A stretch of DNA of 64,000 nt from Candidatus Nomurabacteria bacterium (GCA_023898525.1 CP060227.1:11244-75243); one strand, 5' to 3'. Numbered from the stretch's first letter, positions 17,480 through 42,446 are shown. Numbers and translations: made by a program. Notes: generated by a model not told the origin, from the letters alone.

Positions 17480-18802
17480 ATGGCGAAACCGCTGATTGTT
17501 TGTCGTGACCTATCGATTATTTACAACAAAGGAAAGTCAAATGAATTTAAGGCTCTGACCGGGGTAAATACAGATATTTATGAAGGTGAATACATCATCT
17601 TGTTTGGTGCGTCTGGTTCTGGTAAATCTACTCTAATGTATTCCATCCAAGGCTCTTTACCCCCGGGAGAGGGTACGTTATTGATACGCGGAGATGATAT
17701 ATATTCTTATCCACCAGAAGACCGTGTGTATTTTCAGCGTTACGTAATGGGTATTATATTTCAATCCTTCAACTTGATTCCCTCGCTTTCAGTCTTAGAC
17801 AATGTGGCTCTGCCAATGATCTTTTGTGATGCTGACAAAGCCAGTCGCGAGCGGCGAGCTCAATCGTTACTAGATCGCTTTGGGGTTGGACATGTCTCCC
17901 ACAAAGTACCAGCCATGCTTTCTGGTGGTCAGCAGCAGCGTGTGTCAGTGGCACGGTCTATGGTTAATGATCCAAAAATTCTTTTGGCAGATGAGCCGAC
18001 TGGTAACCTAGACTCAGTTTCAACTCAGCAAGTGATGGATAAGATAGACGAAATTAACACATTTGATCGCCGCACGGTAATTATGGTGTCACACAACGCG
18101 GCACACCTAAGCTACGCTCATCGTGTGTACTATTTAAAGGATGGCCATATTGTGCGAGAGGTGGTAAATCCTCAACGTAAGCAAATAAAACCTGTGAAGG
18201 AAGGGGAGACGATAGTGACTGAGCTTGAGCAGTTGGCTAGACTTTTTCCTTATGACTCGGTTGATACCCTTCGAGTAAAAAGTATGGTTAATTTTTTGAC
18301 TCAGTCACTTACGTATGACCAGCTTATCCGATTGGAGCGGGCCATAGTCTTGTTTATTAAAGGTAAGCTTGATAAAAGAGCTTTCATTAAAGGTCTCATT
18401 GAAACAGAGGAAAATGGTGGGGTAGAGGTGTCATTAGCAGAAGCCAAAAGAATGGCTTCAGTAGCTGAAAAACTAATTACTCAGTCGGACGACATTAGAC
18501 GCTTTAGAGCAAAAAAAGATAATGCTGACATTTTCTTCAGTCAACACCAGCTGGCTGAGCGTTTACGAGACCATTTAATCGGCACATTTAAGATTAAGCT
18601 AAACAAGGATCAAAACAACAACCTAGTTGAATTAATTGCTGATCGGGTGACTGGTGTAATAGAAGAAGCAGAATTTAATGAATACCTGAGTAAAAGTATT
18701 CGTAATGATGGGTTGAGTTTAGATTCAAAGGAAGCCGATGAACTGACACGTTATTTTGAAAAACTAATTGCCCAGGGAGTCGATGTGAGTTATAAGAGTT
18801 AG
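17480..18802 (+). CDS. ABC transporter ATP-binding protein of the MacB/LolD/FtsE class, with an unusual ~210-aa helical C-terminal extension.
   Basis: Walker A GASGSGKST, Q-loop, signature LSGGQQQRV, Walker B LLADEPTGNLD and the H-loop are all present. Residues ~230-440 have no ABC homology. Confidence 0.85.
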   Translation: MAKPLIVCRDLSIIYNKGKSNEFKALTGVNTDIYEGEYIILFGASGSGKSTLMYSIQGSLPPGEGTLLIRGDDIYSYPPEDRVYFQRYVMGIIFQSFNLIPSLSVLDNVALPMIFCDADKASRERRAQSLLDRFGVGHVSHKVPAMLSGGQQQRVSVARSMVNDPKILLADEPTGNLDSVSTQQVMDKIDEINTFDRRTVIMVSHNAAHLSYAHRVYYLKDGHIVREVVNPQRKQIKPVKEGETIVTELEQLARLFPYDSVDTLRVKSMVNFLTQSLTYDQLIRLERAIVLFIKGKLDKRAFIKGLIETEENGGVEVSLAEAKRMASVAEKLITQSDDIRRFRAKKDNADIFFSQHQLAERLRDHLIGTFKIKLNKDQNNNLVELIADRVTGVIEEAEFNEYLSKSIRNDGLSLDSKEADELTRYFEKLIAQGVDVSYKS

Positions 18803-19050
18803 TGAGTACAACTTGAGATTTATAACAACTTTTGATGTTACTATAATTATAGTCGCTAGACACTTTGTTTAAATGGTTTGTTCAGGAAAGGTTTGGTTGG
18901 TGTTACGATTTGGAATATTATAATTATAAGTTTGTAGAGATGTTTTAATTTTTTGCGTGCGTTCGACCACAAGCGTCCAGCAATTTTCTCAGGGAAAGAA
19001 AAAATTGGGACGTAAATTCAGAATAGTCGCTACGCTCGTTTCTTCATTTA

Positions 19051-20259
19051 ATGCGAGTTCAAGACCTAGCTCAACTTTCAACCAGAATGTTTAAGACCAA
19101 TCCAATGCGTACTTGGTTGACGATTTTAGGTATGGGTGTTGGTACTGGGGCGGTAGTGGTCCTGGTGGGTCTCGGCTTTGGGTTGCAAAAAATAATTCTT
19201 GAGCAAATTGTATTTGGTGAGACCTTACTTTCTCTGGGCGTGTCCTCTACAGGAAGTCAAAATTTAAAACTAACTAACGATACTTTAGAGGAATTTCAAA
19301 AAAAACCTGAAGTTTTAGATGCTTCTCCTATGGCTAGGTACCCAGCTCTGGTTACGTACAAAGGACTAACTGGTAATGTTTTTATTCAAGGCATTGAACC
19401 ACCATATCTACGTTATGCTGGTATTACAGCCACTGATGGAGAGGTCTTTACAGATGATGATGCGGGCAACACGGACTCGGTTATGCTTTCACCAGCTATC
19501 ATAAAACTATTTGGCGTTGATGATCCAGCTTCGTTTGTAGGTGAAAAAGTATCATTTCGACTCTTGGTACCAACAGAAGATGGCTCAGGAGATATTCAAG
19601 AGGTGTCGATTGATAAAGAGTATACAGTCCGTGGAATTACCAAAGAGGAAGGTGTTTTGAACGTTATCATGATGCTGCCCGAACTAAAAAACTACGTGAC
19701 TGTCGAGGAGTATGAAAGAGTCCAGGTTAGGGTGGATAGTAATGAAAATTTACCAATTGTTGAAAAAGATCTTATCGAAGAAGGGTATAGGGTGACTGCC
19801 TTATCTAAGACAGTGGAGCAAGCTTCTAAAATATTCCAAGGAATTCAGGCCGTTTTAGCAACTTTTGGTGGTATTGCTCTAGTTGTGTCGGCAATTGGTA
19901 TGTTTAATACCATGACTGTGACACTCTTAGAGCGAACCAAGGAAATTGGGATCATGCGAACGATTGGTGCGTCTCCAAAGGATGTAAAGAATTTGTTTAT
20001 TTCGGAGTCAATTGTAGTTGGTTTTTTAGGGGGAATAAGTGGAATTGTGATGGGTGTTGTTATAGGCGTTACCATCAATGTACTGCTTAATATTGTAGCT
20101 GGACAATTTGGTGGGCAGGCAGTGACGCTATTTTCTTTCCCCATCACTTTTCTTCTTTTTATTGCACTTTTCTCCGGAGCAGTTGGGTATCTCACCGGTG
20201 TTTTTCCCGCCCGTCGGGCTGCTACTTTAAACCCACTTGATGCGATACGTTATGAGTAA
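19051..20259 (+). CDS. ABC transporter permease of the FtsX/MacB family (TM1, large extracytoplasmic domain, three C-terminal TMs).
   Basis: The N-terminus 'NPMRTWLTILGMGVGTGAVVVL' is typical of a MacB/FtsX TM1. The C-terminal FtsX-like triple-TM carries 'ERTKEIGIMRTIGASPKDV'. The true start may be the ATG at 19087. Confidence 0.8.
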   Translation: MRVQDLAQLSTRMFKTNPMRTWLTILGMGVGTGAVVVLVGLGFGLQKIILEQIVFGETLLSLGVSSTGSQNLKLTNDTLEEFQKKPEVLDASPMARYPALVTYKGLTGNVFIQGIEPPYLRYAGITATDGEVFTDDDAGNTDSVMLSPAIIKLFGVDDPASFVGEKVSFRLLVPTEDGSGDIQEVSIDKEYTVRGITKEEGVLNVIMMLPELKNYVTVEEYERVQVRVDSNENLPIVEKDLIEEGYRVTALSKTVEQASKIFQGIQAVLATFGGIALVVSAIGMFNTMTVTLLERTKEIGIMRTIGASPKDVKNLFISESIVVGFLGGISGIVMGVVIGVTINVLLNIVAGQFGGQAVTLFSFPITFLLFIALFSGAVGYLTGVFPARRAATLNPLDAIRYE

Positions 20260-20356: not shown

Positions 20357-22204
20357 ATGTTGTACAACTTACTAGGGAATTCAAATAAATTGCATACAGC
20401 TGGGAAAATCACTATTCTAACTGCGGCTACCGGACTACTTATATTCATGTTTGCTTTTGTTTTTAATGCCGGAAAGACTGAGTTAATGAAAGTCGAGGCC
20501 CAAACAGCCACTACTACACTGACTGTTTTGAACACTCCTCCACAGTGGATTAGTACGACTACTGAAGAAGTTGAATCTTCGACTTCAACACCAACAAACT
20601 CTGGAGACGAAGTTTCCTGGATTGCTGTAGCTGACAACTCTGGCTCAGCTCCTTATTTTTTGCTGATATGTAGCACAAACGCAACCCCTACACCTAATGC
20701 CGCAGCTGATCTTGGGAGTTTAGGTACGGCACCGCCAGACTGTGGAGGAGGGGTACAATGGGGAGTTTCCACAGCAACGGCTGCTTTATCACAAGCTAGA
20801 GTAGCTACTACCACCACTGAGGCTATGTCGGAGAGTAATGACTGGTTTGCTTGGGTGTGTGACGACGATCCGGTAAATCCAAGGTGTAACGATACATATA
20901 CACAAGGTACAAATGCCACAAACTCGTCACCGTTTATAGTAAACCACCGTCCAGTATTTACTACGTTCTATAATAATTCTCCAGCTGATCCTGGCGTTAC
21001 TTTTGACTTTTTCTCTACATCATCGGATCCAGATGTACTTGGAGGTGATGACGCCATTAAGCTTTATGTTTGTAATCTAAACGATTTTGTTGCCACATCA
21101 TCTGATTGTGGTCCGGGGGGAACAATTGCCAGTACCACGATTACCATTAATGACAACGCAACATCCACCTACACATTACCGAGTGTTATACAAGATGATG
21201 TTTATGATGCATGGGGATTCATTATAGATGAACATGGTCATACAGCTTCTGGTGGTGCACAAGCCACGAATGTTGGTTTCACAGTCAATAACGTAGCGCC
21301 AACAACTGTTACTGGTAATGTCAATATAAATGGAGGAGTCGATATGCCACTAACAGTAGATAATGGTGAGACAACCGGATTTACTTTAGACTTTGAACTT
21401 TCAGATGCTAACAGCTGCCAGAATGTCTCAGCTGGTGACGAAATCACAAATTTCACTGTTGCTCTACAGAGATCTACGGCTGCCTGCGATGGTACATCTG
21501 CCTCTTATGATCCAAATAATTGTTATACGAATCAGGTCGCTACAACTACATGGAATTTGTCATGTACAGCGTCAAGTACTAGCTGTACCGGTGCTACAGA
21601 TCCAACCATGCGCTGGGATTGTACCTTCCCACTGTGGTTCGTGGCCGAGCCAACCGATGCTCCGTCTCCGTACGCTGCGAACGACTGGATTGCTGTTATT
21701 GCTGGCGTAGATGATAATAATGCTACAGGTACAGCCGCTACAGGAACTATTCCGGTAGAGCTACTAAGTTTCCCGGCAATTGATCTTCTGACAGCAGAAA
21801 TACCATACGGGGCACTTGAACCAGGAAACAACACTGGAACACTGAATGCAACTACAACCGTTCAAACGGTAGGTAATACTGGCCTTAACGAAAACGTTGA
21901 TGGTGATGCCATGTGTACAACATATACACCAAGTACACCATGTCCAACCTCAGCTACGTCTACTATTCCTGACTTTGAGCAAGAGTTCGGTACCTCGTCA
22001 GTGTCTTATGGATCTGGAACTAGTTTGTCATCTAGTACGCCGCAGCTAGTTCTGCTAAAGGTACCAAAGACCACTTCAACCTCTACTCCTAATTCAGGAA
22101 TTACATACTGGGGTATCAATGTTCCTTCTTCAATTACATTATCAGGTGCTTACACTGGCCTCAACACGTTTGCTGCAGTTGTCTCTTCTTCGACGGATTG
22201 GTAA
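20357..22204 (+). CDS. Thr/Ser-rich secreted protein (615 aa) whose C-terminal tail 'ITYWGINVPSS...GLNTFAAVV' is homologous to that of the giant protein.
   Basis: It has an N-terminal signal anchor. I aligned the C-terminal ~35 aa with the end of the 1..15803 product by eye (YWGINVP, then G...N.F.A). Confidence 0.65.
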   Translation: MLYNLLGNSNKLHTAGKITILTAATGLLIFMFAFVFNAGKTELMKVEAQTATTTLTVLNTPPQWISTTTEEVESSTSTPTNSGDEVSWIAVADNSGSAPYFLLICSTNATPTPNAAADLGSLGTAPPDCGGGVQWGVSTATAALSQARVATTTTEAMSESNDWFAWVCDDDPVNPRCNDTYTQGTNATNSSPFIVNHRPVFTTFYNNSPADPGVTFDFFSTSSDPDVLGGDDAIKLYVCNLNDFVATSSDCGPGGTIASTTITINDNATSTYTLPSVIQDDVYDAWGFIIDEHGHTASGGAQATNVGFTVNNVAPTTVTGNVNINGGVDMPLTVDNGETTGFTLDFELSDANSCQNVSAGDEITNFTVALQRSTAACDGTSASYDPNNCYTNQVATTTWNLSCTASSTSCTGATDPTMRWDCTFPLWFVAEPTDAPSPYAANDWIAVIAGVDDNNATGTAATGTIPVELLSFPAIDLLTAEIPYGALEPGNNTGTLNATTTVQTVGNTGLNENVDGDAMCTTYTPSTPCPTSATSTIPDFEQEFGTSSVSYGSGTSLSSSTPQLVLLKVPKTTSTSTPNSGITYWGINVPSSITLSGAYTGLNTFAAVVSSSTDW

Positions 22205-22231
22205 CTAGGCATTAGTGAATACATATTGTTT

Positions 22232-22275
22232 CAGCCGCTGTTATCCAGACAGCGGCTGTTGCATTTTATTGTTAT
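22232..22275 (+). terminator. Rho-independent terminator: CAGCCGCTGT-tatccag-ACAGCGGCTG followed by a T-rich tract.
   Basis: A perfect 10-bp stem with a 7-nt loop, then ttgcattttattgttattttt, lies immediately after the 20357..22204 stop. Confidence 0.7.
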
Positions 22276-22333
22276 TTTTCGGATAATTATATGTGTGTAT
22301 CAAGCACGAGTAATTTTTAAAATTAAAATATTA

Positions 22334-23239
22334 GTGGCTGCTTGTCTGCTGTTTTTTATGGTGGGCACACAAATTGCTAGTGCTGGTTTTGGTATTACCC
22401 CTCCATATGTTCGCAATACAAGTTTGACAAAAAATTCGACTTACGAACAACAAATACTCCTAGTTCGTGGTGACCCAGATGTTCCGCTAAAGGCTCAAAT
22501 CACGATAGATGCTCCGGAGATTCAGGATTGGATACAAGTTATAGAAGGTACTTCAATTCCGCTACCTCGTGGAGAGCAAAAGGTGCCCATGACAGTCCGT
22601 GTTGTTGTGCCAGATGACGTTGAGTTTAAAAATTATAAGGGCGTTCTAAGAATTAAAACCCTTCCTGATGACACGCAGGTGGCAGCGGGTGCGGTCAATA
22701 TTTCTCTAGGGGCACAGGTTGATATTGATTTAACAGTGATTGATCGAGAAATCAAAGATTTTCGCGTTCGTAAGATATCAATGTCTGACTTGAATGAAGG
22801 ACACAAGCTGGCCTGGCTCTATTTTCCAGGAAAGATAAAGTTTGGAATATTACTTGAGAATACTGGTAATGTTGATATAGCACCGTCAAAAGTTGAGCTA
22901 CGCATCTTTGATTTTTCTGGAAATGTTCTACTAGAGGAGACAGCTCAGAAGGGTAAGATTAAAAAAGTTGCACCATACTTGACTGATGAAGTTATAGCTG
23001 AAATACCAACTAGACTCCCGGCTGGCAATTACGTGGCTAGATACACTATTTATAACGATGATGAAATAAAACAAGAGGGTGAAGTTAGTCTAAGTATTTT
23101 GCCATATGGCACGCTGCAGGAAGCTGGTTTTGGTTTTGGTGGATTATCTCTCGCTCACAAAATATCTGTACTTCTACCAATCTTTATAATAGTAATTTTA
23201 ATTCTTTACTTTATACATAATCGTAGACGGTCGAATTAG
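22334..23239 (+). CDS. CscA-like (DUF916/DUF3324-like) surface protein: signal peptide, two beta-sandwich domains, C-terminal TM anchor and a basic tail (HNRRRSN).
   Basis: It is paralogous to 38526..39560 and 39511..41202. I placed the start at a GTG downstream of the terminator hairpin, because the annotated ATG at 22226 would have to be read through the terminator. There is a C-terminal hydrophobic stretch, ISVLLPIFIIVILILYFI. Confidence 0.5.
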   Translation: MAACLLFFMVGTQIASAGFGITPPYVRNTSLTKNSTYEQQILLVRGDPDVPLKAQITIDAPEIQDWIQVIEGTSIPLPRGEQKVPMTVRVVVPDDVEFKNYKGVLRIKTLPDDTQVAAGAVNISLGAQVDIDLTVIDREIKDFRVRKISMSDLNEGHKLAWLYFPGKIKFGILLENTGNVDIAPSKVELRIFDFSGNVLLEETAQKGKIKKVAPYLTDEVIAEIPTRLPAGNYVARYTIYNDDEIKQEGEVSLSILPYGTLQEAGFGFGGLSLAHKISVLLPIFIIVILILYFIHNRRRSN

Positions 23240-23245
23240 TTAGAT

Positions 23246-24355
23246 ATGAAACTGTATTCTTTCCTGTTTCTTTATCTCTTCTTAATTTTATTTACTGCAC
23301 CAATTACACTAGCAGTTACTGAAGGGACAGCAACCACAACCCTTACTCTAAGTATATGTGGTAATTCATTAGTTGACCCTGGAGAACAATGCGATGCACC
23401 TGGAGAGACTGGTGTATACAGCACAACCATTGTTGGAAGACAGTGTAATGCTTCATGTAATTTTGGCCCTTACTGTGGTGATGGTGTATTACAAACATTC
23501 TACGGCGAAGAATGTGACGACGGTAATAATGATAATTCAGACTTTTGTTCTGCAATCTGCAAAGTTGAACCAGCTGGATCGGGTGGTGGCGGTAGTAGTG
23601 GTGGCGGTGGTGGCGGTGGAGGCAGTAGTCGTGATCTAGGCGATACGCAAATTAGTGTAACTGGTATCGCCTACCCGGGTCGCACGATAAACATATTATT
23701 GGATTCAGAGCCGGTTGGAAGTGTTCGCACTTCAAACTCAGGTACCTTTGATTTTGCGACTGACGCATCACCCGGAACAGCTTCGCTTAGTTTTTGGTCA
23801 ACAGATGTTTCGGGAGTTCGCTCAATCACATTGAATACTACTTTTGATGTAACACAGGGTGCAATCACGAATATATCAGGAATTGTATTGCCGCCCACGA
23901 TTAGTGTAGCAAACCAAAATGTTAATCCCGGTGATATTGTTACTGTAACAGGGCAGTCGGCTCCAAACGCTACAATTGAGCTTCATGTTAATAATAGTGA
24001 GCTAGTTGAAACTGGTACCTCAAGTGCTGATGGTGTTTGGTCAATTAAACTTGATACTGGTAAATTACAGGTTGCAGAACATACCATTAAGGCTCGCTCA
24101 ATATCTAAGTCTGGTCAACTTTCTACTCCAAGTAGCTTTAGTACAGCCTTACAGTTATTTGTGGGCGTAGAAGGAAAGATGACCACTCCATCTGACCTAA
24201 ACCGTGACGGTAAGGTAAATTTAATTGACTTTTCAATCTTGATTTTCTGGTGGGGCTCAGATGGAGGTAACTCAAGTCCGTCGGCTGATATAAATGGAAA
24301 TGGTAAAGTAGGGATTGAGGACTTTTCAATTCTTCTGTTCAATTGGAGTGGTTAG
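23246..24355 (+). CDS. Secreted protein carrying Myxococcus-type cysteine-rich repeats (CGDG...GEECDDGN...C), a poly-Gly/Ser linker, Ig-like domains and a C-terminal dockerin (DLNRDGKVNLID / DINGNGKVGIED).
   Basis: It has a signal peptide. The Cys spacing pattern and two dockerin-type Ca-binding repeats at the C-terminus are visible in the translation. Confidence 0.65.
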   Translation: MKLYSFLFLYLFLILFTAPITLAVTEGTATTTLTLSICGNSLVDPGEQCDAPGETGVYSTTIVGRQCNASCNFGPYCGDGVLQTFYGEECDDGNNDNSDFCSAICKVEPAGSGGGGSSGGGGGGGGSSRDLGDTQISVTGIAYPGRTINILLDSEPVGSVRTSNSGTFDFATDASPGTASLSFWSTDVSGVRSITLNTTFDVTQGAITNISGIVLPPTISVANQNVNPGDIVTVTGQSAPNATIELHVNNSELVETGTSSADGVWSIKLDTGKLQVAEHTIKARSISKSGQLSTPSSFSTALQLFVGVEGKMTTPSDLNRDGKVNLIDFSILIFWWGSDGGNSSPSADINGNGKVGIEDFSILLFNWSG

Positions 24356-24567
24356 GAAGCATTTATGTTTTTACTCGAGGACTGTCTGCGTAATTGTGTA
24401 TAAGTTTATCTAATATTTCTTTCTTCAAGATACAATATAAAAGTACTTGTATTGGAGGTAACCAATTAGTGTTGCTGCGAATAAGGTCGCGATTGTTCGG
24501 ATACTTCAGCCGAGTATTACAGTGCAGGTATGTTTGCAGTGCATTATTTGATGCACAGTGTGGAGAC

Positions 24568-24605
24568 TGTTCATCGTATGAACATTTTGTTCATCTGAAT
24601 GAACA
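24568..24605 (+). promoter_or_regulatory. Tandem palindromic operator-like sites: TGTTCAT-cgt-ATGAACA and TGTTCAT-ctga-ATGAACA.
   Basis: Two perfect 7-bp inverted repeats share the same half-site and sit 3 bp apart, about 60-90 bp upstream of the 24660 start. Confidence 0.45.
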
Positions 24606-24659
24606 TGAAGTCGCGGCATGTCGAGTTCAGACTGCAGACTAAAATACAACGTAGAGCAT

Positions 24660-25808
24660 ATGATAAGAACGCAATCTTCGTTCTCATTGCTCCAAGCTAC
24701 TGCAGTACTAAGCATAATAGCGGTCATTCTTTGGTCGCTAGGTGCCCCTGGTATCCGTTTTGCGGAAGCTGCAAATGTCAATTCATTTACTGACACACTC
24801 TCGGATTCGGCACCATCAACAGTATCGAACCACACGATTACTTTTGTAACGCCGACCGGACTGGCGGCTGGTGAAGCAATCACACTGACTTTCCAGTCAG
24901 GATTTACAGGAATTGCATCACTGGTTGCTCAGGACCTTGACCTTTTTGCGTCAGGAACTGAAAGAACGCTTATTGATGGAGCTGCATCGGGTGCTAGCTG
25001 GAATGTAACCGCATCAGGTCAGGTTATCACTATTACAAGTGGTACCGATACTATCGGAGCTAACGCTACAGTCACCATTGAGGTCGGTACAAACGCAACG
25101 TCTGGTGGAACCGGTACTAATCAAATTAGTAATCCAACCACTGGATCGTACACGATTGATGTTGCGGTCGGTGCTAGTGACACCGGAACAACTATGGTTG
25201 CAATTGTAGATACAGTTACTGTTACAGCCGCTGTTAATACCATTTTCAACTTTACGGTTAATGGTGTATCTAACGGACTAACTGTAAACGGTACTACAAC
25301 AACCGGTACATCAACATCTACGACTGTACCTTTTGGTACTTTGTCAGCTGATACCGCCGCAACCGTAGCTCAAGATCTGGTAGTAAACACTAATGCCGCC
25401 AACGGCTTTATTGTTACTGTCCAGACTGACCAGCAATTAAAATCCGCAAATTTAGCAGATATTGATGGATTTGCGAATGGTGCGTTCACTACCACACCAA
25501 CATTTTGGTCCGGGCCATCTCAGACCATAGGTCAAGAAAATACTTATGGACACTGGGGTATAACGACAGATGATGACACAATCACTGCATCATTGACTGA
25601 CCCGTTTGATGTTGGTGGTTCTGGACAAAAATATGTGTCTGCTTCAACTACTCCAGTTGAGATTTTCAGAAATGATGGTCCAGCGAATGGTACTACTAGT
25701 GGAGTTGGTACAACTCGAGTAGGTTATACAGTTGAAGTAAGTTCACTACAGGAAGCTGCAGATGATTACACAGCTACGCTGACATACGTAGCAACACCAG
25801 TATTCTAA
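24660..25808 (+). CDS. Thr/Gly-rich surface protein (about 380 aa) with an N-terminal signal anchor and the C-terminal motif '...LQEAADDYTATLTYVATPVF'.
   Basis: I chose the start at MIRTQSSFSLLQATAVLSIIAVIL, the hydrophobic N-terminus. The C-terminal 25 aa align with the C-terminus of the 2,050-aa protein (EAGDYQTEIVYLAIPSF). Confidence 0.6.
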   Translation: MIRTQSSFSLLQATAVLSIIAVILWSLGAPGIRFAEAANVNSFTDTLSDSAPSTVSNHTITFVTPTGLAAGEAITLTFQSGFTGIASLVAQDLDLFASGTERTLIDGAASGASWNVTASGQVITITSGTDTIGANATVTIEVGTNATSGGTGTNQISNPTTGSYTIDVAVGASDTGTTMVAIVDTVTVTAAVNTIFNFTVNGVSNGLTVNGTTTTGTSTSTTVPFGTLSADTAATVAQDLVVNTNAANGFIVTVQTDQQLKSANLADIDGFANGAFTTTPTFWSGPSQTIGQENTYGHWGITTDDDTITASLTDPFDVGGSGQKYVSASTTPVEIFRNDGPANGTTSGVGTTRVGYTVEVSSLQEAADDYTATLTYVATPVF

Positions 25809-25932
25809 AATATTGGTACCAAGCTTGGGGTAAAACAAGAAACCTATCTCCCACCACGAGACGGGTTTTTTGTTTATCCTTTGCTGTGTACAGTCCTAAT
25901 AAGCAAGGAGGTAATTTTGTTATAATTTCAAA

Positions 25933-26985
25933 ATGATAAGAACATTAGCAGCTTTGCTTATTTTCATTTTTGCAACTCCGGTCGCTCTTGGGGCTACGTT
26001 ATATATTGACCCAGGAACAGCAACTTTAAACCGCGGTGATGCTGTTACGTTAGCTGTTAGACTGGTACCTGACAAAGATAAAGGGGAGTGTATAAATGTG
26101 GTAGATGCTGAACTCAAGTATTCTAACTCAATTCAACCCGTGGATGTATCAATTGGTCAGTCTATACTGAGTGTCTGGCTTGATGAACCGACGATCAATC
26201 GTGACCAGAATACAATTACCTTTACTGGTGGGATTCCAAATGGGTACTGTGGCCGGGTGAGTGGAGACCCAAGAATGACAAATATTGTTGCGGAAATAAT
26301 TTTTAGGTCACCCGGAATGCAGGTAGGTGTGTCAGCTGCTTCCAGTGAGGCAAAAGTGGAGTTCACACCCAAAACCCAACTTCTTCTAAATGATGGTCAA
26401 GGTACAAAAGCTGAGTTACGCACCTTAGGTGCAACCTTTGCTTTGACTAACTCAGCCAGTTCAACCGTATCGGACGTTTGGAGACAGAACGTTAAAAGTG
26501 ATACCATACCGCCCGAGGAATTTAGTATAGAATTAGTAAAAGATAATGATGGAATTGATTTTAATGGAAGATATTACATAGTTTTTACTACAACTGATAA
26601 ACAAACCGGAATAAGCCACTACGAAGTAATGGAAGAACCCCTCTCTAAGTTAAACTCGTTTACTTGGGGAGGCGCAGATGTACCATGGAAGAAACCAGAT
26701 CATGCAAATGTCTACGTATTAGAGGATCAAAGTCTTAATAGTACAATCCGCGTCAAAGCCGTAGACAAGGCCGGAAATGAATACATAGCTACGCTGGTAC
26801 CAGATGAGTCATTAAGAACTATCACCAACAATCAGATATTTAACTGGGCGATTCTCGTGGGAGTGATAATTATCCTAATTATACTTGGTGTCGTTGCTGT
26901 CATTATTTTACGCAGACGTAGAAACTCAGAGACTAGCGTAGATTCTGCAGACAGCAATGATCCTGATTTAACGTCAAGTAACTAA
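25933..26985 (+). CDS. Cohesin-domain-like surface protein with a C-terminal TM anchor and basic tail (ILRRRRNSE).
   Basis: It has a signal peptide. The N-terminal domain ('LYIDPGTATL..G..V.L.V.L....PINA/INV...L.Y...I..V') is paralogous to the N-termini of 26992 and 29429. The C-terminal hydrophobic stretch is AILVGVIIILIILGVVAVII. Confidence 0.6.
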   Translation: MIRTLAALLIFIFATPVALGATLYIDPGTATLNRGDAVTLAVRLVPDKDKGECINVVDAELKYSNSIQPVDVSIGQSILSVWLDEPTINRDQNTITFTGGIPNGYCGRVSGDPRMTNIVAEIIFRSPGMQVGVSAASSEAKVEFTPKTQLLLNDGQGTKAELRTLGATFALTNSASSTVSDVWRQNVKSDTIPPEEFSIELVKDNDGIDFNGRYYIVFTTTDKQTGISHYEVMEEPLSKLNSFTWGGADVPWKKPDHANVYVLEDQSLNSTIRVKAVDKAGNEYIATLVPDESLRTITNNQIFNWAILVGVIIILIILGVVAVIILRRRRNSETSVDSADSNDPDLTSSN

Positions 26986-26991
26986 TCGTTT

Positions 26992-28740
26992 ATGTGCAAT
27001 TTTTTTTCGCTAAAGCTACCTGAATTAATTATTCTCGCCGTTATCATTTTTTCTCTGCCTAACTTTAGTTTGGCTGCTTCACTTTATGTAAGTCCGGATA
27101 CTGGCGTATATGTGGCTGGTAAGACTTTTACAACCAAGATTGCTATAAACACCAACGGAAAACCTATCAATGCTGCTGAGGGAACACTGAAATTTAACCC
27201 TCAAGAACTGAAAGTATTGTCCATTAATAAAACAGGTTCAATTTTTAATCTCTGGGTCACTGAGCCTACTTTTTCTAATTCGGCTGGTACCATTAACTTC
27301 AGCGGTGGTATGCCGAGTGGTTACACTGGGAGTTCTGGAACTATTTTCAACGTAACCTTTACAACTACAGCAGCGGCTACAGCAAAACTGTCATTTACTA
27401 ATGGGTCAGTTTTAGCCAATGATGGAATGGGTACTAATGTACTCACAGGTATGAAGGGTGGTACTTACACTATACAGCCACAGACTTCACAGCCAGCTGC
27501 TGAAGTTGTTGAATACGTTCCTCCAGCTAATACTCCTGGAACTCCGCAGATAAAATCAACAACACATGTAAACGGGGAGTGGTCAAAGAATACTACAGCA
27601 GATTTATCTTGGACTATACCGGCTGGAGTCACAGCTGTTCGGACCAATTTAGATAATTCTCCCAACACCATTCCAACCAAAGTCTATGAGCCTGGGATCA
27701 GTCAAATAACTTTACCTAGTCTTGATCAGGGTATTTCATATTTTCATTTACAGTTCCGCAATTCTGATGGTTGGGGCAAGGTGGCCCATTTTCAAATAAA
27801 AGTTGATACAGAAAAACCACTTTCAGTTAATTTAAGTTCACCGGCTGATGCTGATTTTACAAATCCGGTTCAGCAAATAAAAGTTGAAGCTAAAGATGAG
27901 ACTTCGTTGGTCTATAGTTATAAAGTTAAGATTGATAATGAGGAGCCTTTTGATTACATAGACGAGAATAGAGAAGGTGTTATTGTTTTGCCACCACTTC
28001 TGCCAGGGTATCACTCTGTGATAATAGAGGCTTTTGATGAAGCTGGTAACGGTCTTGTAGCCACGCACTCTTTTACGATTCTAGCTTTCGACAAGCCTAC
28101 TTTTACTGAATATCCTTCCGAAATAAATGAAGAAGTAATACCGGTAATACGCGGATTGTCGAGACCAAATGCTGAACTGGAAATTTTCCTAAAGAAGTCA
28201 GGCGCAGAGCCGGAAACCTACAGTATTTTAGCCGATAATGGAGGTATATTTACATTCATACCTTCAGGCACATTAAGTGTTGGTGTTTATGAGCTCTCAG
28301 CTCGAGCAACTGATGAATTTGGCGCTCAGTCAGAACTTTCAGATATTGTTAAAATAGCGGTGCAGCAACCAGGGTATGTGAGGATTGGAAATTGGTTAAT
28401 TAGTCTTCTTTCTATTGTTATTCCACTCGTTGCTCTTCTAATATTACTAATATTATCAGTTCTATACCTCATTAATAGAGCTCGTCGCTTCAGAAGTAGA
28501 GTAGCTATAGAGTCTAGCGAAGTTACACAAATTGTAGAAAAAGAGTTAGCTGGTCTACAATCATTACTAGATTTCCATAAACTAAAGTTAGAACAATCAA
28601 GAAAGACAAACAAGCTTACAAAAGCCGAAAGTGGTATGATAGAGGAGTTAAATAAATCATTAACACAAGCCAAGACCAGAATCAGTAAAGAGGTAGCAGA
28701 TGTAGAGCAGGTAGTAAAAAGGAAGAAATCTAATAACTAA
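26992..28740 (+). CDS. Cohesin-domain-like protein with Ig/FN3-like repeats, a C-terminal TM anchor and a cytoplasmic coiled-coil tail.
   Basis: It has a signal peptide. The cohesin-like N-domain includes 'ASLYVSPDTG...PINAAEGTLKFNPQELKVLSI'. The TM is LISLLSIVIPLVALLILLILSVLYLI, followed by RARRFRSR. Confidence 0.6.
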   Translation: MCNFFSLKLPELIILAVIIFSLPNFSLAASLYVSPDTGVYVAGKTFTTKIAINTNGKPINAAEGTLKFNPQELKVLSINKTGSIFNLWVTEPTFSNSAGTINFSGGMPSGYTGSSGTIFNVTFTTTAAATAKLSFTNGSVLANDGMGTNVLTGMKGGTYTIQPQTSQPAAEVVEYVPPANTPGTPQIKSTTHVNGEWSKNTTADLSWTIPAGVTAVRTNLDNSPNTIPTKVYEPGISQITLPSLDQGISYFHLQFRNSDGWGKVAHFQIKVDTEKPLSVNLSSPADADFTNPVQQIKVEAKDETSLVYSYKVKIDNEEPFDYIDENREGVIVLPPLLPGYHSVIIEAFDEAGNGLVATHSFTILAFDKPTFTEYPSEINEEVIPVIRGLSRPNAELEIFLKKSGAEPETYSILADNGGIFTFIPSGTLSVGVYELSARATDEFGAQSELSDIVKIAVQQPGYVRIGNWLISLLSIVIPLVALLILLILSVLYLINRARRFRSRVAIESSEVTQIVEKELAGLQSLLDFHKLKLEQSRKTNKLTKAESGMIEELNKSLTQAKTRISKEVADVEQVVKRKKSNN

Positions 28741-28754
28741 TATAAATAATACCT

Positions 28755-29432
28755 ATGACAAATTTTTTCAGAAAGAACGGAATATATGTAGCAGGGGTTT
28801 TGGTAGGTATATTTGTAGTACTTGTCTCAGCACAAGCAATAACAAATCAAAAACTGAGCAGTCTTAGGTACCATATAGATAATGAAATTACTCTCCAGAC
28901 TGCCAAAGTCGAGAATTTAGCGAAATTAATAGGGAATGGAAAATCTAATGCTAAGGCTGAAGCACTGGTTAAAGCTTGCGCCTCGGCTGATAACGACCTG
29001 TACGAAAACCTTTTATCTAAGTTAGATAACGGTCTTGGACAATCAGACTTAAAGACACTAAACAGCTTATTTGATGAATGTGGTTATGTTTACGCAAACA
29101 GGAGAGCTGATATGGTCTATCAGTTTGAGTACGAGGTTAATAATTTACTTTTCTTAGTCCAAGAAAGGAATTATTTTGATGGAGAAAAGGTTGGCTTACT
29201 AGATAATTCTCTCAAATGGAATGAATTGCTTTTGATAGAAGATAATATCAGAGACAATTTTCTTGAGCTGGTTGTAATTCAAAAGCACATCATAACGACT
29301 CTACTTGCTGGAGAAACCAAGGATTCTTATGCGGTTCAAGCCTTACGTGAAGATGCTGAGGAGGTTCGAACTAACTTGTCAGAATCAACCAAAAAGGCAT
29401 CTACGCTAAGATCAGAACTTATAAAATCATGA
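28755..29432 (+). CDS. Hypothetical N-terminally anchored protein (225 aa).
   Basis: There is an ORF with an N-terminal TM segment (IYVAGVLVGIFVVLV). Its stop overlaps the next start (ATGA), which suggests translational coupling. Confidence 0.5.
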   Translation: MTNFFRKNGIYVAGVLVGIFVVLVSAQAITNQKLSSLRYHIDNEITLQTAKVENLAKLIGNGKSNAKAEALVKACASADNDLYENLLSKLDNGLGQSDLKTLNSLFDECGYVYANRRADMVYQFEYEVNNLLFLVQERNYFDGEKVGLLDNSLKWNELLLIEDNIRDNFLELVVIQKHIITTLLAGETKDSYAVQALREDAEEVRTNLSESTKKASTLRSELIKS

Positions 29433-30184
29433 AATCAGTAATTTCTCTTTGGAAGAATATAAGAGGAAAGACACCAAATACCGCATCAGTCAGGACTATA
29501 AAATACATGTTTCCAATGTTTTTTGGGGCAATTGTAGTTTTGTTCGCCAGCATAATTGGCTCTGATAAGTCGTACGTAAAACTAGTACCATCTCAAACAC
29601 TGGTAATGCAAGGAGAAAATTTTTCTGTGGATGTCTACGTGAATGCTCATATTCCGGTTAACGCCATTGATGTTAGAGTAGCTTTTCCAAAAGATAAGGT
29701 TCAAGTTCTAGGTATAGATAAAGGTGGTTCAGTCTTAACCATTTGGACTGAGGAACCGATAATAGAAAACAATACAGTGAAATTTAGTGGCGGTACATTT
29801 AAACGTGGTTTTCTAGGCGAGCATTTGATTGGGACTATCAATGCTAAAGCTAAATATACCGGTAAAACAGAATTTGCTGTTACAGAAGCTCAGCTTTTGG
29901 CGGGTGATGGGGCAGGAAGTGTTGTGGCCATTGATAACGAAAGTACAGAATCTAAAACCAGCTTTTACATTTATGACCAAAATGAAGATCCAACTAAAAT
30001 ATCAGCCGAAATTGGCGTCAATATAGTCGGTGACCTAGATGGTGATGGTAGTGTTAGTATTAAGGACATCAGTGTCTTCATGGCAAATTGGCGTTCGAAA
30101 AAGATGGTCTATGATTTTAATAGTGATGGCAAAATGAATTTCATTGATTTCTCAATAATTTTAGCTAGATCTTTCTTTAATTAA
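29429..30184 (+). CDS. Cohesin-like domain protein with a C-terminal dockerin (DLDGDGSVSIKD / DFNSDGKMNFID).
   Basis: An N-terminal TM is followed by a cohesin-like domain paralogous to 25933 and 26992. There are two dockerin Ca-binding repeats at the C-terminus. Confidence 0.65.
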   Translation: MKSVISLWKNIRGKTPNTASVRTIKYMFPMFFGAIVVLFASIIGSDKSYVKLVPSQTLVMQGENFSVDVYVNAHIPVNAIDVRVAFPKDKVQVLGIDKGGSVLTIWTEEPIIENNTVKFSGGTFKRGFLGEHLIGTINAKAKYTGKTEFAVTEAQLLAGDGAGSVVAIDNESTESKTSFYIYDQNEDPTKISAEIGVNIVGDLDGDGSVSIKDISVFMANWRSKKMVYDFNSDGKMNFIDFSIILARSFFN

Positions 30185-32368: not shown

Positions 32369-35300
32369 ATGGGTATGAAAGTCCTAGGTGTGTTAAATGC
32401 GTCAAGAAAATCTACAACTACTATCTTGGTGGGTGTCATTTGCTTACAATTACTTGGCGTAACCTTGATACAATCTCTTTTATACCCGCTTGTGGCCGAG
32501 GCAGCTGTAGTGGTAATTGAAGGAGCTCCCAGTAGCACTGGTGACGATCATACGGTAGCCGGCTCTGACACTGTATTTATTGACGATAATGTTGGTTACA
32601 AGTTTTATCGTTCAGGAAGTGGGACTTGTGATTACAAAAAAACCACTGATAAAGGGGCGACTTGGGGAACGGCGGTTACGGTTGATAATCAGACCGACTG
32701 CATAGGAGTAGCTGTTTGGTACGATCGCTGGACACCTGGAGACACTGGTAGCTATATTCATATTGCGACACTTGATACTTCACTGGATGAAATGTTTTAC
32801 AATCGATTAGACACGACAAACGATACGCTTTTAGTAAGTACTTCAATCAGCACAACTCCAGCATCAAGCGCGGTTTACACCGCGTCAACTAACCGTATAA
32901 ATATAAGTAAAGCAACCGACGGTAAGGTGTATATGGTAGTAGATGACGGGCAACAAACAAATCTGGTCTCGTGTACCTCGAGCTGCCAAACATCGGGTAA
33001 CTGGAGTGCTGTTGGTACGGCGCCAGAAGGAAACGCTGATAGTTGGAGTATTTTAATGCCTTTAGCTTCAGGAGACATGATGCTAATCAACCGCAGCACC
33101 AGCGATGTATTAAGATCCAGTAACTGGAACGGCTCGTTTTGGTCATCCATGAACACCATTGACGCGTCAGCTATTCGTAGTACTAGTTATGACGTTGGTA
33201 TGGCAGCTACAGTAGACATAGACTCGGGAGACATATACTTAGCGTATGCCGCAGATAATGACAACTTCAACACGGCCGACCATGACGTTCGTAGTGCAAA
33301 ATATTCAGGTGGTAGCTGGGCTCTTAAGACAGATCTGATTACTAACTACTCGGGCGCAATACTACAAGTGGCTATAAGCCGAGACCAAAATACTAATGAT
33401 ATTTATGTTGCCTATACGGCTAGGTCGGCTATAAAGACTGCTGGTTCAGCTAATTTGTATTATAAAAAATCTACTGACGGCATGACTACTTGGGGAACAC
33501 AGCAGGGTCCGGTCAATAGCACCTCCGGTGATTTTTATGGAGTTGATATGAATATCATGTCCTATGAACGTGTATACGTTACTTGGTTTGATAATATTAC
33601 TGCCGTCCGTGATATTTTTGGAGAAACAATAGCTGACCTTCAGCCGGACACGATACTTTCATCTTTAGGCACACAGAAATCTCAGATACGAGACAATGTG
33701 ACAAATACCTACATTGGTGGCTCATTTGCACTACAAACTAATACATCTAAAACAGTTAGCAATGTGGTACTTACCGAAAGCGGTACAATAGATGCCAGTG
33801 CTAACTTAGCTAATATTAAGCTATATTATGATTTAGACACGTCAACTCCTTATGACTGTAATAGCGAATCTTATAGCGGTACCGAAACCCAGTTTGGTTC
33901 AACTGTCACTGGTGGTTTTTCAGGAGCTAATGGTACGGCTTCATTTACCAATACACCAATATCAATATCAACCACTCAGAGCATATGTTTCTACGCTGTA
34001 ATGGACGTATTAAGCGGAGCCAGTGACGGTGATACTATAGAGATTAGCGTCAGTAACCCAAAAACCGATGTTATCGTTTCAGGTGGTGTATATGTCTATC
34101 CATATGAAGAGGTAGCTATTGCTAGTACCACAACAGTTGTTAGTCCGGATCTGACTCAAAATGCTTATCATTTTAGAAACGATGACGGTACAGAATCAGG
34201 TGCTACCTCAGCGACCGGGGGAACCGAAAACACACCACTGGCAGCTATGCAAGCAAACGACAATATAAGAATTCGCTTCGCTTTAGCCAACCAAGGTTCT
34301 ACCTCGTCCGTCCCAACCACATACCGTCTTGAGTACGGAGCTGCGGCGCCGACATGTGCTGACGCTAGTTGGTCTGTGGTTAATGACACTAGTGCTCTTT
34401 TTCTAATGTATGATTCATCAAACTTAACTGACGGCAACAACACAACAAACATTGCTACGAGTACTGGAGGGGTTTCAAATCTCGGCTCTAATTTTATAAC
34501 GAGTAACGGCGGTATGCGTGATACATCAGTAAACACAGGCACCTTAACTTTGGATGTTAATGACTATATAGAGTTCGAATATTCAATAATTGCGTCATCC
34601 ACTGTAGTGGAAGGTGAGACTTACTGTTTTAGAATTACCGCTAATGGTACAGCCCTTAATAGTTACACAAACTATCCGAGTGTAACTATTGCAGCTGATG
34701 TCACGGTGGATACTTTTGGTACCCAAACTACTAGCTTTGATATACCAACTACCACAGCTTATATTGGAGGTGGTTTTAGTATTAAAGAGAACACAGTGGC
34801 AAGAAATATAACCAGCATCACAGTTCATGAAGCTGGTACAGTAGCAGGTGACACCGGTATCAGTAACCTGCGTCTCTACTATGAACTTGATACCTTTGCT
34901 CCTTATGATTGTGCCAGTGAATCATATAATGGGACAGAAACTCAATTTGGTGCTACAAATGCTGGTGGTTTTTCTGACACAGGAGAGAAAGCTACCTTCA
35001 GTGGCACGATCCCTATCTCACTTATTAGTACCGCCTGTATTTATGTTGTTATGGACGTAACAGGTCAGGCAGCCAACGGCGAAACTATTAACGTGCAGAT
35101 CTCATCACCAAATTCAGATGTTGTGGTTAGCGGAGGTGGTTCAGTTGGTCCGTCAGGTCTAATTGAGATTGCTAGTACAACAACTTTACAAGGAGGTATA
35201 TTAACTCAATCTAACTACCACTTCCGTAACGATAATGGTAACGAAACGGGAGCAACATCAGCTACCGGTGGTAGTGAAAATACTGTTATAACTGATTTTG

Positions 35301-38525: not shown

Positions 38526-39560
38526 ATGACTTTATCCACCTTCAACAGAGCATCACTTGGAATTTTCTGGTTAGCAGCTGTTTTCTTCTTTTTTTCTATA
38601 TCAGAAGCTTACGCAGAAGAAAATATATCAGTATCGCCACTTATTATTGATCATGTAACCGAAGCTCGTGACATCTTGAAGCAAGACATAACTATTAAAA
38701 ACAACGGTGATAGACCGGTTCGTTTATATGCAACTGTTCACGAAATAAAAGTTGGTGACGACAATGAAATACAGTCCTTCGTTCCGCCGTCTATGACTGA
38801 TCGCAAAACCTCCATAACCAGTTGGCTGGAAATCTCAAGAGCACGGATCAGTTTGCAGCCGGGTGAGGAAACTAAAATACCTCTTACTATTAGAATAAAT
38901 CCAAACGCTAAACCTGGTGACTATCACGCTTTTGTCAGTTTTCCAAGTGGTGCAAACGCGGATATCGCTGAGGCCAAAGCGATAGCTGGTGAAGCTGAAG
39001 GTTTAGTGGTAAGAGTGTCCATTGATGAAAAACAGATTGAGCTCCTCAGATTAACTTCATTTGATGCCGATACGTTTGTGCTTGATGACAGCCACAATTT
39101 CACTTTTTCCCTGGAAAACGCCGGCGACATAGATGTCGTTCCCAGTGGTGAAATAATTATTTACAACTCTAAGGGCCAAGAATTAACAGCCATACCAGTA
39201 AATGACAATAATGTAAGTATACCGCCGCAAGCTAAAACAGATTTCTCTATACCAGTACCACAACTAGATGGTTTTGGTAAAAATAAAGCATATTTGTCGT
39301 TAGAATATGGTGAAAAGAATCTCGCTACCGTCTATGACACTATTTACTACTACTCTATACCGTGGCTATTAGCAATAATAATGTTATCATTACTCATAAT
39401 ACTTCCGGTAATCATGACGCTTGTCTTTCATCGTATCGCTAGGCCAACCTATCCGGATTATGAACATATTGACGAGGGTATAGAATTGCCACTTTTTGTC
39501 CGAAAATCACATGACCACAAAATTCACGACCATGATATTGACCTTAAAAAGAAAGACTAA
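38526..39560 (+). CDS. CscA-like (DUF916/DUF3324-like) surface protein with a C-terminal TM anchor.
   Basis: It has a signal peptide. The 'ISVSPLIID....I.IKNNGD.PV.LYATV' domain, a second domain with 'KPGDYHAFVSF', and a C-terminal TM (LLAIIMLSLLIILPVIMTLVF) resemble those of 22334 and 39511. Confidence 0.55.
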   Translation: MTLSTFNRASLGIFWLAAVFFFFSISEAYAEENISVSPLIIDHVTEARDILKQDITIKNNGDRPVRLYATVHEIKVGDDNEIQSFVPPSMTDRKTSITSWLEISRARISLQPGEETKIPLTIRINPNAKPGDYHAFVSFPSGANADIAEAKAIAGEAEGLVVRVSIDEKQIELLRLTSFDADTFVLDDSHNFTFSLENAGDIDVVPSGEIIIYNSKGQELTAIPVNDNNVSIPPQAKTDFSIPVPQLDGFGKNKAYLSLEYGEKNLATVYDTIYYYSIPWLLAIIMLSLLIILPVIMTLVFHRIARPTYPDYEHIDEGIELPLFVRKSHDHKIHDHDIDLKKKD

Positions 39561-42444: not shown

Positions 42445-42446
42445 CA

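Follow-up and report, generated by a model that had tools for sequence, protein, structure and literature searches.

In a 64 kb stretch of DNA from a Candidatus Nomurabacteria bacterium belonging to the candidate phyla radiation (CPR), hereafter the window, the interval 23246-30184 encodes three predicted cohesin domains and two dockerins. With moderate confidence, we consider this region to be a genuine non-cellulosomal cohesin-dockerin module, a fixed sub-assembly of a conserved surface apparatus of Paceibacteria-type CPR bacteria, in which membrane-anchored cohesins would capture dockerin proteins. The five open reading frames (ORFs) of the module were found where a preliminary description of this DNA had placed them, all on the plus strand. 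The proteins are named here after the first nucleotide of their genes.

23246-24355, plus strand: secreted dockerin protein (369 aa) with signal peptide, Cys-rich head, two immunoglobulin (Ig)-like domains and C-terminal dockerin
25933-26985, plus strand: cohesin-transmembrane protein A (350 aa) with signal peptide, divergent cohesin, one more domain, C-terminal transmembrane helix and RRRR
26992-28740, plus strand: cohesin-transmembrane protein B (582 aa) with signal peptide, cohesin, Pro-rich linker, about three Ig-like domains, transmembrane helix and cytoplasmic coiled-coil tail
28755-29432, plus strand: protein of 225 aa with an N-terminal transmembrane helix, the rest helical
29429-30184, plus strand: cohesin-dockerin protein (251 aa)

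The 251-aa product of 29429 is 100% identical to NCBI protein H6779_00080 from a metagenome-assembled genome (MAG) of Candidatus Nomurabacteria. Its gene is overlapped by 4 nt by 28755-29432, which sits between two of the cohesin genes, so that these three are not strictly adjacent as had been described. The six-frame ORFs of the whole window contain three cohesins and two dockerins in total, as determined with family hidden Markov models (HMMs); a regular expression for the calcium (Ca) loops, applied to 20 window proteins, agrees with this.

Both dockerins are genuine. The gathering score of Pfam Dockerin_1 (PF00404) is 22.9 bits, and it was exceeded by 23246 (32.0 bits, E 1.5e-7, residues 316-363) as well as by 29429 (25.4 bits, E 1.6e-5, residues 201-244).

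24191-24352, plus strand: dockerin of 23246 (residues 316-369, with Ca loops at 317-328 and 348-359)
30029-30181, plus strand: dockerin of 29429 (residues 201-251, with Ca loops at 202-213 and 229-240)

Each Ca loop comprises 12 residues with Asp or Asn at positions 1, 3, 5 and 12, and is followed by a helix. The loops are DLNRDGKVNLID (317-328) and DINGNGKVGIED (348-359) in 23246, and DLDGDGSVSIKD (202-213) and DFNSDGKMNFID (229-240) in 29429. The resulting ligand patterns are D-N-D..D and D-N-N..D in the former and D-D-D..D and D-N-D..D in the latter. No further Ca loop was found when the loop expression was applied to 20 window proteins. The ligand positions are invariant or nearly so across 48 (23246) and 68 species, respectively. 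A Dockerin_1 match was obtained for 36 of 37 orthologs of 29429, and the top sequence match of the 29429 family profile in the PDB was the cellulosomal dockerin 2y3n_B (E 4.6e-5). In the structural model of 29429 described below, helices 211-223 and 238-250 follow the two loops. The dockerin of 23246 is almost invariant over 48 species and evolves about 2.5 times more slowly than the remainder of the protein (mean pairwise p-distance 0.16 vs 0.41). The dockerins are thus under strong purifying selection. Weak dockerin matches in some orthologs of 26992 were gapped and were rejected as spurious.

The two dockerin-bearing proteins with intact spacing of the Ca ligands therefore stand as predicted. 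The label "textbook type I" applies to them in part: like cellulosomal dockerins, they have duplicated F-hand Ca-binding segments. Recognition positions 10 and 11 of type I dockerins are usually Ser-Thr; unlike these, the four loops have L-I, I-E, I-K and F-I, which are hydrophobic or charged. In addition, the loop starts of 29429 are just 27 residues apart, which makes the linker between the segments unusually short.

By predicted fold and by orthology, the N-terminal domains of 25933, 26992 and 29429 are cohesins.

25993-26457, plus strand: cohesin domain A (25933 residues 21-175; family HMM, E 2e-21)
27076-27486, plus strand: cohesin domain B (26992 residues 29-165; family HMM, E 5e-39)
29570-29974, plus strand: cohesin domain C (29429 residues 48-182; AlphaFold2 and Foldseek)

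The domains are about 135-155 aa long rather than the 110 aa estimated earlier. They align pairwise at 25-30% identity and have the motifs W..EP, F.GG and DG.G in common. The family HMM, applied to the six-frame ORFs of the window, retrieved just these three cohesins (E 1e-60, 5e-39 and 2e-21). Alignment of the ortholog families by hhalign gave probabilities of 99.7% for 25933 and 26992 (244 columns), 98.6% for 26992 and 29429 and 96.1% for 25933 and 29429. Since the Pfam Cohesin family (PF00963) misses the window copies and sequence profiles are weak, a comparison of folds was needed. AlphaFold2 on the 251-aa protein with an alignment of 84 sequences resulted in a predicted local distance difference test score (pLDDT) of 84.7 overall and above 90 for residues ~48-182; the pLDDT of the single-sequence prediction was 34. 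The modelled cohesin has nine strands and is without inserted helix or flaps. When this model was compared to the PDB by Foldseek, the top 50 matches were nearly all cohesins. The best matches were 2vo8 (E 6.3e-9, template modelling score (TM-score) 0.78) and 2jh2 from C. perfringens and 2xdh from A. fulgidus (TM-score 0.78), with E values of 6e-9 to 6e-8 for these three. Lower matches were type I cohesins, including the single-cohesin anchors OlpC (4dh2) and OlpA (3ul4). The structural modelling covered the 29429 domain, and the domains of 25933 and 26992 are tied to it via hhalign.

The orthologs point in the same direction. At E≤0.01, PF00963 matched 44 of 46 orthologs of the 26992 type (best 1e-12), 14 of 37 of the 29429 type (best 2e-7) and 3 of 45 of the 25933 type (best 2.9e-5), so that the Pfam check proposed in the preliminary description gave matches for orthologs and none for the window copies themselves. 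The 26992 ortholog in locus L001 has a precomputed PF00963 match. A profile of the three domains retrieved 96 proteins, many of them with precomputed PF00963 and/or PF00404 matches and some with the NCBI name "cohesin domain-containing protein". Together with the fold of 29429, these matches bear out the claim of three paralogous cohesin-like N-terminal domains.

Cohesin B is the most conserved of the three (mean p-distance 0.355), and cohesin A, that of the 25933 type, is the most divergent. It has an invariant pair of Cys residues, C33 and C86 of the domain. The pair is located in GECINAVD ... GYCGRV, and there is an insertion GRVSGDPRMTN; both features are absent from the other two cohesins. 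The sequence of cohesin A suggests a disulfide-stabilised, functionally diverged socket. In a few loci (L020 at 7470-7931, L009 and L070 near 10500-10700), the gene for the 582-aa cohesin protein or the cohesin-dockerin gene is split or truncated. An example is a cohesin-only ORF of 154 aa, named "cohesin domain-containing protein" by NCBI. These cases are either assembly frameshifts or real decay.

A cohesin fold need not mean that dockerin is bound. The domains could serve as generic Ig-like stalks, in pilus anchoring or in binding of glycans or host, and the dockerins could be Ca-dependent stabilisers or bind, for example, the host surface. In line with this, Pfam does not recognise the window cohesins owing to their divergence, and at rank 17 Foldseek listed a β-sandwich that is not a cohesin, namely CLIPPER, a fibrillar-adhesin domain (9ifr). 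Giant proteins with dockerins only were, moreover, proposed as adhesins in Omnitrophota (PMC10066038). We regard this explanation as very unlikely: co-inheritance in one operon and fusion in one protein in about 70 species are hard to explain without mutual interaction, and the motifs common to the three paralogs lie at or beside predicted strands 3, 5, 6 and 8. Carvalho et al. are said to have described these strands in 2003 as the dockerin-binding sheet of type I complexes, and they would correspond to the same strands of the 29429 model.

Conservation of the module was analyzed with a single genome for each GTDB species. Orthologs of 29429 are encoded in 70 species-level loci, all of them in MAGs from CPR bacteria of Paceibacteria, Parcubacteria, Nomurabacteria or Kaiserbacteria type, with a few evidently mislabelled. 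The titles of many public MAG records with the operon (L005, L008, L010, L038, L051 and others) read "uncultured Candidatus Saccharibacteria", and single ones read "Acidimicrobiales" or "Azotimanducaceae"; such titles probably reflect wrong taxonomic labels or contigs that were binned incorrectly. Nearly every locus with enough flanking sequence has the same order on one strand: a dockerin protein (~370-400 aa), two cohesin proteins (first ~350-400 aa, then ~580-600 aa), a protein of ~220 aa and a protein of ~250 aa with cohesin and dockerin. Of about 48 loci long enough to include it, 47 had the 23246 ortholog at its expected offset. The 225-aa gene is always located between the cohesin B gene and the cohesin-dockerin gene; its ortholog was found in 65 of about 69 loci with a median identity of 28%, which makes it the fastest-evolving member. 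BLASTP synteny extended the conserved block to 13 genes, from 19051 to 39496, and nearly all loci that extend far enough have them at the offsets expected.

19051-41202, plus strand: 13-gene operon (BLASTP synteny)

The operon starts with a MacB/FtsX permease, followed by a 615-aa protein, a WxLIP-like transmembrane protein, the dockerin cargo, a pilin, cohesin A and cohesin B. The 225-aa protein and the cohesin-dockerin protein come next, and then a 682-aa propeller, a 2050-aa giant pilin-like protein, another WxLIP-like transmembrane protein and a WxLIP_PGBD+LytR_C protein. Synteny in about 70 species implies that the three cohesins and two dockerins are an inherited, selected unit and no chance grouping.

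The topology of the proteins was derived from a hydrophobicity scan (Kyte-Doolittle), and the remaining parts were assigned as follows.

23357-23572, plus strand: Cys-rich head of 23246 (residues ~38-109, DUF4215 / myxo_disulf repeat)
23639-24160, plus strand: two Ig-like domains of 23246 (Big_6 type, 43.2 bits)
26851-26907, plus strand: C-terminal transmembrane helix of protein A (25933 residues 307-325, Kyte-Doolittle 3.65, then RRRRN)
28396-28452, plus strand: transmembrane helix of protein B (26992 residues 469-487, then NRARRFRSR)
28453-28737, plus strand: cytoplasmic coiled-coil tail of protein B (residues 488-582, ~95 aa)
29507-29563, plus strand: N-terminal hydrophobic anchor or long signal sequence of 29429 (residues 27-45)

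Protein 23246 contains 8 Cys residues and a single hydrophobic segment at its N-terminus; because only this signal peptide was found, the protein is taken to be secreted. Its head matched DUF4215 with 36.1 bits and also the Cys-rich repeat TIGR02232. The C-terminal membrane anchors of two cohesin proteins, 25933 and 26992, each with an Arg-rich stretch after the helix, were recovered as previously reported. The Ig-like region of 26992 matched Big_13 (36.3 bits) and others. In its tail, the motif SRKTKKLTKAE is conserved in orthologs, and weak ArlX/FlaX-like matches were seen (E 0.013 and 0.0046). A conserved cytoplasmic tail is needless for surface anchoring alone and hints at coupling between the inside and the outside of the cell. 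Protein 29429 starts with a predicted cytoplasmic region of 26 residues with the conserved motif TVRYMFP, followed by the hydrophobic segment and directly by the cohesin; the linker between its cohesin and dockerin comprises about 18 residues and is flexible (pLDDT ~54). The term adaptor had been applied to 29429. Cohesin and dockerin are indeed both present, and the N-terminal hydrophobic anchor makes free bridging less likely, so that a membrane-tethered protein is the more likely form as judged from its sequence.

In the arrangement that we propose, the three paralogous cohesins would be displayed singly on the outside of the cytoplasmic membrane, each at a different height. The cohesin of 29429 would directly follow the N-terminal anchor, that of 25933 would be one domain above the C-terminal transmembrane helix, and that of 26992 would be about three Ig-like domains above the helix that leads to the conserved cytoplasmic coiled coil, which would correspond to about 0, 1 and 3-4 domain lengths above the membrane. 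Two plugs would be available for these sockets, the dockerin of secreted 23246 and the C-terminal dockerin of 29429. The anchored cohesins would capture dockerin-tagged extracellular proteins in a non-covalent, Ca-dependent manner. Capture would tether the Cys-rich head protein 23246 at the surface, and the anchors would be cross-linked into a membrane-proximal platform. This platform would be at the base of the operon's own fibre/adhesin system, with its Pam-like donor-strand pilin and giant pilin-like adhesin, its WxLIP-like proteins resembling chaperones and its MacB-type ABC transporter. Further dockerin-tagged proteins from elsewhere in the genome may be recruited. Cohesin-dockerin binding as such, the choice of partners, placement at the cell surface and a functional connection with the fibre and with the MacB transporter are what we infer from these data.

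Dockerins of the same kind also occur outside the operon. An exhaustive HMMER search of cluster representatives with the profile of the cargo dockerin yielded 809 representatives at E≤1e-10. Among them were cargo orthologs of about 380 aa and a prominent class of 550-650 aa with the same C-terminal dockerin, in which Pfam detected Big_13, Big_6 and Y_Y_Y together with Dockerin_1. One member of this class, P0116 (L073, 10001-11872), is a mosaic protein, with a design that the class has in common. Towards the N-terminus it is similar to the N-domain of 24618, which is pilin-like (29% identity, E 4e-9), and its C-terminal half is the Ig-Ig-dockerin cassette of 23246 (39% identity, E 6e-44). The P0116 gene is located among unrelated genes, beside FGE-sulfatase-like genes and with no cohesin operon there. 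The presence of the same cassette on different heads identifies it as a portable handle and suggests modular display of different heads on one set of sockets. Taken together with the excess of cohesins over dockerins, it implies that the cohesins may serve clients beyond the two adjacent ones. With three cohesins for two dockerins, and with the cassette also on a protein away from the cohesin operon, the notion of a self-contained scaffold became doubtful.

Such a closed scaffold would consist of an anchored cohesin, the Cys-rich cargo and 29429 as a soluble adaptor between them, its signal peptide being cleaved, and would have no other clients. The sequence ..IIGS followed by DKS after the hydrophobic segment of 29429 could be a signal-peptidase site; on the other hand, a 26-residue N-region with TVRYMFP is atypical of a cleaved signal peptide. 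The co-occurrence of cohesin and dockerin in 29429, the composition of three cohesins and two dockerins that is fixed in about 70 species and a hint of covariation between the 29429 dockerin and the 26992 cohesin would all be compatible with this arrangement. It would, however, leave one cohesin unused, and it does not agree with the same dockerin cassette on proteins encoded outside the operon. We consider a closed scaffold improbable.

As cohesin and dockerin of 29429 are on one polypeptide and are connected by the flexible linker of about 18 residues (pLDDT ~54), the cohesin might also bind the dockerin of the next 29429 molecule or its own dockerin. This would result in head-to-tail chains or a lattice on the membrane, or in an auto-inhibited monomer, with the other cohesins competing or capping. 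In 70 species, 29429 hardly varies in architecture or in length (about 250 aa), which would fit such self-assembly. To our knowledge, in characterised systems the dockerin of a scaffoldin targets the cohesin of another protein, and the partial correlation between the cohesin and dockerin of 29429 itself was low in the mirror-tree analysis (0.23). Self-assembly therefore appears quite unlikely to us, and we return to capture of dockerin proteins by anchored cohesins as the favoured explanation.

The gene between those of 23246 and 25933 encodes a protein of 396 aa that appears to be a distant relative of the pilins of Pam pili.

24618-25808, plus strand: putative distant Pam-type pilin (396 aa; NCBIfam CPR_Pam_pilin_C)

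NCBIfam CPR_Pam_pilin_C (NF058581) matched 24618 over its full length with E 0.0034 and 17.5 bits, at a cut-off of 55 bits. Among 38 orthologs, 26 likewise matched the whole length of the model (best E 3.3e-6), each with a score short of the cut-off. A search of the PDB by sequence gave no match for 24618. The most conserved stretch of the protein, residues ~188-214, is a putative linker and fits a donor linker strand. The linker and C-domain of 24618 recur at the end of the 2050-aa giant protein (32369-38521), with 31% identity and E 3e-13 by BLASTP; the pilin-like part of the giant is located at ~37990-38518. The C-terminal ends of the giant and of 24618 are ...DYQTEIVYLAIPSF and ...DDYTATLTYVATPVF, respectively. 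This relationship was found by BLASTP and was missed by an HMM of the pilin C-domain family. It suggests that the 2050-aa giant is a subunit that could enter a pilus, and the likely range of Pam-like pilins would extend to Paceibacteria. The 262 nt upstream of the pilin-like gene (24356-24617) constitute the biggest intergenic gap of the operon. No Rfam match and no convincing promoter were found in this gap, although a separate promoter for the major subunit could be conceived here. Scanning of 15000-45000 revealed no known RNA in Rfam, and promoter and terminator scans gave counts at or below shuffle expectation.

A second giant of 5259 aa is paralogous overall to the 2050-aa giant (about 33% identity by BLASTP). 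It has a C-terminal domain of about 300 aa (14901-15803) in common with the 615-aa protein 20357 (21305-22204), with 33% identity, E 4e-28 and the motif YWGINVP. Neither cohesin nor dockerin was detected in the giants by the family HMMs, and such contacts can therefore not directly organise the giants, as the preliminary description had assumed for the surface proteins; the 2050-aa giant ends in the Pam-type pilin linker and C-domain instead. Since giants and pilin are without a dockerin, it is synteny that connects the module to the fibre.

The proteins encoded at 22226-23239 and 38526-39560 and the N-terminal part of that at 39496-41202 are paralogs with two domains and a transmembrane helix after the domains (hhalign 94.7-99.9%). 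WxLIP_PGBD (DUF916) barely passed in 39496 (27.9 vs 27.3 bits), and passed in 1 of 50 paralog and ortholog sequences of the WxLIP-like proteins. The paralogs may be counterparts of the membrane-anchored Pam chaperones, for which the sequences give weak evidence. A PapD-like chaperone identity found no support in the sequences, and the top PDB match was a collagen-adhesin repeat (E 0.0014). The WxL/Csc system of Firmicutes was rejected, as no WxL-domain protein was detected in the operon by Pfam. A strong hairpin with a stem of 11 bp, seven G-C pairs and a T-rich tail is present at 22232-22258, just past the stop codon of 20357-22204. It overlaps the TTG codon at which ORF 22226 was mechanically predicted to start; this ORF probably begins further downstream, just ahead of the signal peptide KIKILVAACLLFFMVGTQIASA. 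The hairpin may act as a terminator or an attenuator.

A MacB-type ABC transporter, consisting of an ATPase and a MacB_PCD/FtsX permease, is encoded directly upstream (17480-20259). Of all genes in the syntenic block, that of the permease shows the highest conservation (median identity 81%). The operon is followed at 41752-42995 by genes for a thioredoxin resembling DsbA and for a protein of the redoxin/AhpC type, both N-terminally anchored. Cys residues are abundant in secreted proteins of the operon, with 8 in 23246, 14 in 20357 and 21-32 in the giants, and the two redox proteins may form their disulfides. The putative platform is co-inherited with the MacB-type ABC "mechanotransmission" transporter. 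A more far-reaching picture would be a hybrid machine specific to Paceibacteria, in which a donor-strand-exchange (Pam-like) fibre with giant adhesins is based on or regulated by a transmembrane cohesin-dockerin platform, whose longest member, 26992, would extend into the cytoplasm by its conserved coiled coil. Such a machine would provide Ca-dependent, force-bearing coupling from the cell interior to an attachment organelle of an episymbiont and an open socket for interchangeable dockerin-tagged heads from elsewhere in the genome. This extension is speculative, and we consider it unlikely.

Several results weigh against the view of the region as a functional cohesin-dockerin module within a surface apparatus. 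PF00963 matched none of the three window domains even at E≤1. In profile searches of the PDB, no cohesin was found by sequence for the 25933- and 26992-type domains; the 29429 family profile gave one marginal cohesin match (5g5d, E 0.53). At least one cohesin has no partner within the operon, given three cohesins vs two dockerins. In the mirror-tree analysis over 33 loci, no cohesin-dockerin pair exceeded unrelated domain pairs (partial r 0.08-0.28). Residue covariation over 46 loci ranked the 29429 dockerin with the 26992 cohesin at the top (0.63, compared to at most 0.40 after shuffling and 0.44 for a control with the pilin). We rejected this as evidence for pairing, as the residue pairs look like single clade splits and are confounded by phylogeny. 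With regard to the apparatus, giants and pilin lack dockerins, the Pam relationship remains below the NCBIfam cut-off, and the chaperone-like signals of the WxLIP-like paralogs are all weak (fimbrial chaperone E 0.095, ASH domain E 0.0011).

That cohesin and dockerin modules also exist outside cellulosomes has been known since the survey by Peer et al. 2009 (FEMS Microbiol Lett 291:1), as cited in PMC10066038. The best structural matches to the modelled cohesin belong to this group, with E values of 6e-9 to 7e-8 and TM-scores up to 0.78 (the C. perfringens GH33/GH84C toxin-complex cohesins 2vo8, 2jh2 and 2w1n, and 2xdh of A. fulgidus). Like these pairs, the module has no context of plant-cell-wall degradation, and its cohesins are single and not in tandem. 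Unlike them, the window cohesins are tethered by transmembrane helices, and one of these cohesin proteins has a cytoplasmic tail that is conserved. The cargo, of Cys-rich/Ig type, is no enzyme, and the module, with its constant number of three cohesins and two dockerins, is part of a pilus-like operon in a CPR bacterium of ultra-small size.

The resemblance to cellulosomes is limited to single elements. As in OlpA and OlpC of C. thermocellum (3ul4, 4dh2), a single cohesin is present on a cell-surface anchor with a predicted dockerin partner, and as in adaptor scaffoldins such as ScaA of A. cellulolyticus, one protein has both cohesin and dockerin. The earlier finding that the locus is without glycoside hydrolases was confirmed: no glycoside hydrolase, carbohydrate esterase, polysaccharide lyase, carbohydrate-binding module (CBM) or other catalytic domain of carbohydrate-active enzymes (CAZymes) was detected in the window proteins scanned. 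The Pfam scan also detected no S-layer homology (SLH) domain, and anchoring is via transmembrane helices. In contrast to a cellulosome, there are no dockerin-tagged CAZymes, CBM, tandem cohesins, SLH/sortase anchoring or X-module in the window. The composition is thus not cellulosomal, despite the earlier term "cellulosome-like", and a cellulosome was rejected as an explanation because CAZymes, CBM and tandem cohesins are missing and each protein has one cohesin.

Pam pili are CPR-specific filaments formed by donor-strand exchange (Troman et al. 2026, bioRxiv 10.64898/2026.03.03.709456). They were reported mainly from Saccharimonadia and Microgenomatia, and cohesin and dockerin are both unmentioned in that paper (10.64898/2026.03.03.709456). 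Like the Pam system, the window operon is CPR-specific, all components have secretion signals, accessory proteins are on C-terminal transmembrane helices, and there is no outer-membrane usher. It differs by the addition of cohesin-transmembrane proteins, dockerins, the MacB ABC transporter and giant pilin-like proteins, and by pilin matches that are below the NCBIfam cut-off for the Pam system proper.

Cohesin and dockerin proteins were proposed as adhesins in anaerobic methanotrophic (ANME) archaea and their sulfate-reducing bacterial (SRB) partners (PMC10553843). In Omnitrophota, a giant ORF has nine dockerins (PMC10066038), and the dockerin protein SEML1_0315 is essential in the Saccharibacterium Southlakia epibionticum (PMC10633639). 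These are likewise envelope modules with cohesin or dockerin in non-cellulolytic organisms that live attached to cells. The reports are domain annotations with speculated roles, and include no conserved operon with membrane-anchored cohesins and a pilin. A full-text literature search revealed no description of the operon, of membrane-anchored cohesins in CPR bacteria or of cohesin-dockerin modules tied to Pam-type pilins. Non-cellulosomal modules and the NCBI cohesin labels on relatives were thus already known; the operon, transmembrane-anchored cohesins in CPR bacteria and the association with a Pam-type pilin, all predicted from sequence, would be new.

Few non-covalent couplings between proteins are known to be as strong as cohesin-dockerin pairs, whose roles beyond cellulosomes are largely speculative. 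In this CPR bacterium, the plug-and-socket pair of cohesin and dockerin probably tethers surface proteins and not enzymes. The module is small, has a fixed composition and is present in at least 70 species of a major uncultivated, non-cellulolytic lineage. With five small recombinant domains, it makes the function of non-cellulosomal cohesins and dockerins directly testable, and it offers an entry point to the surface structures of Paceibacteria, which presumably serve host attachment.

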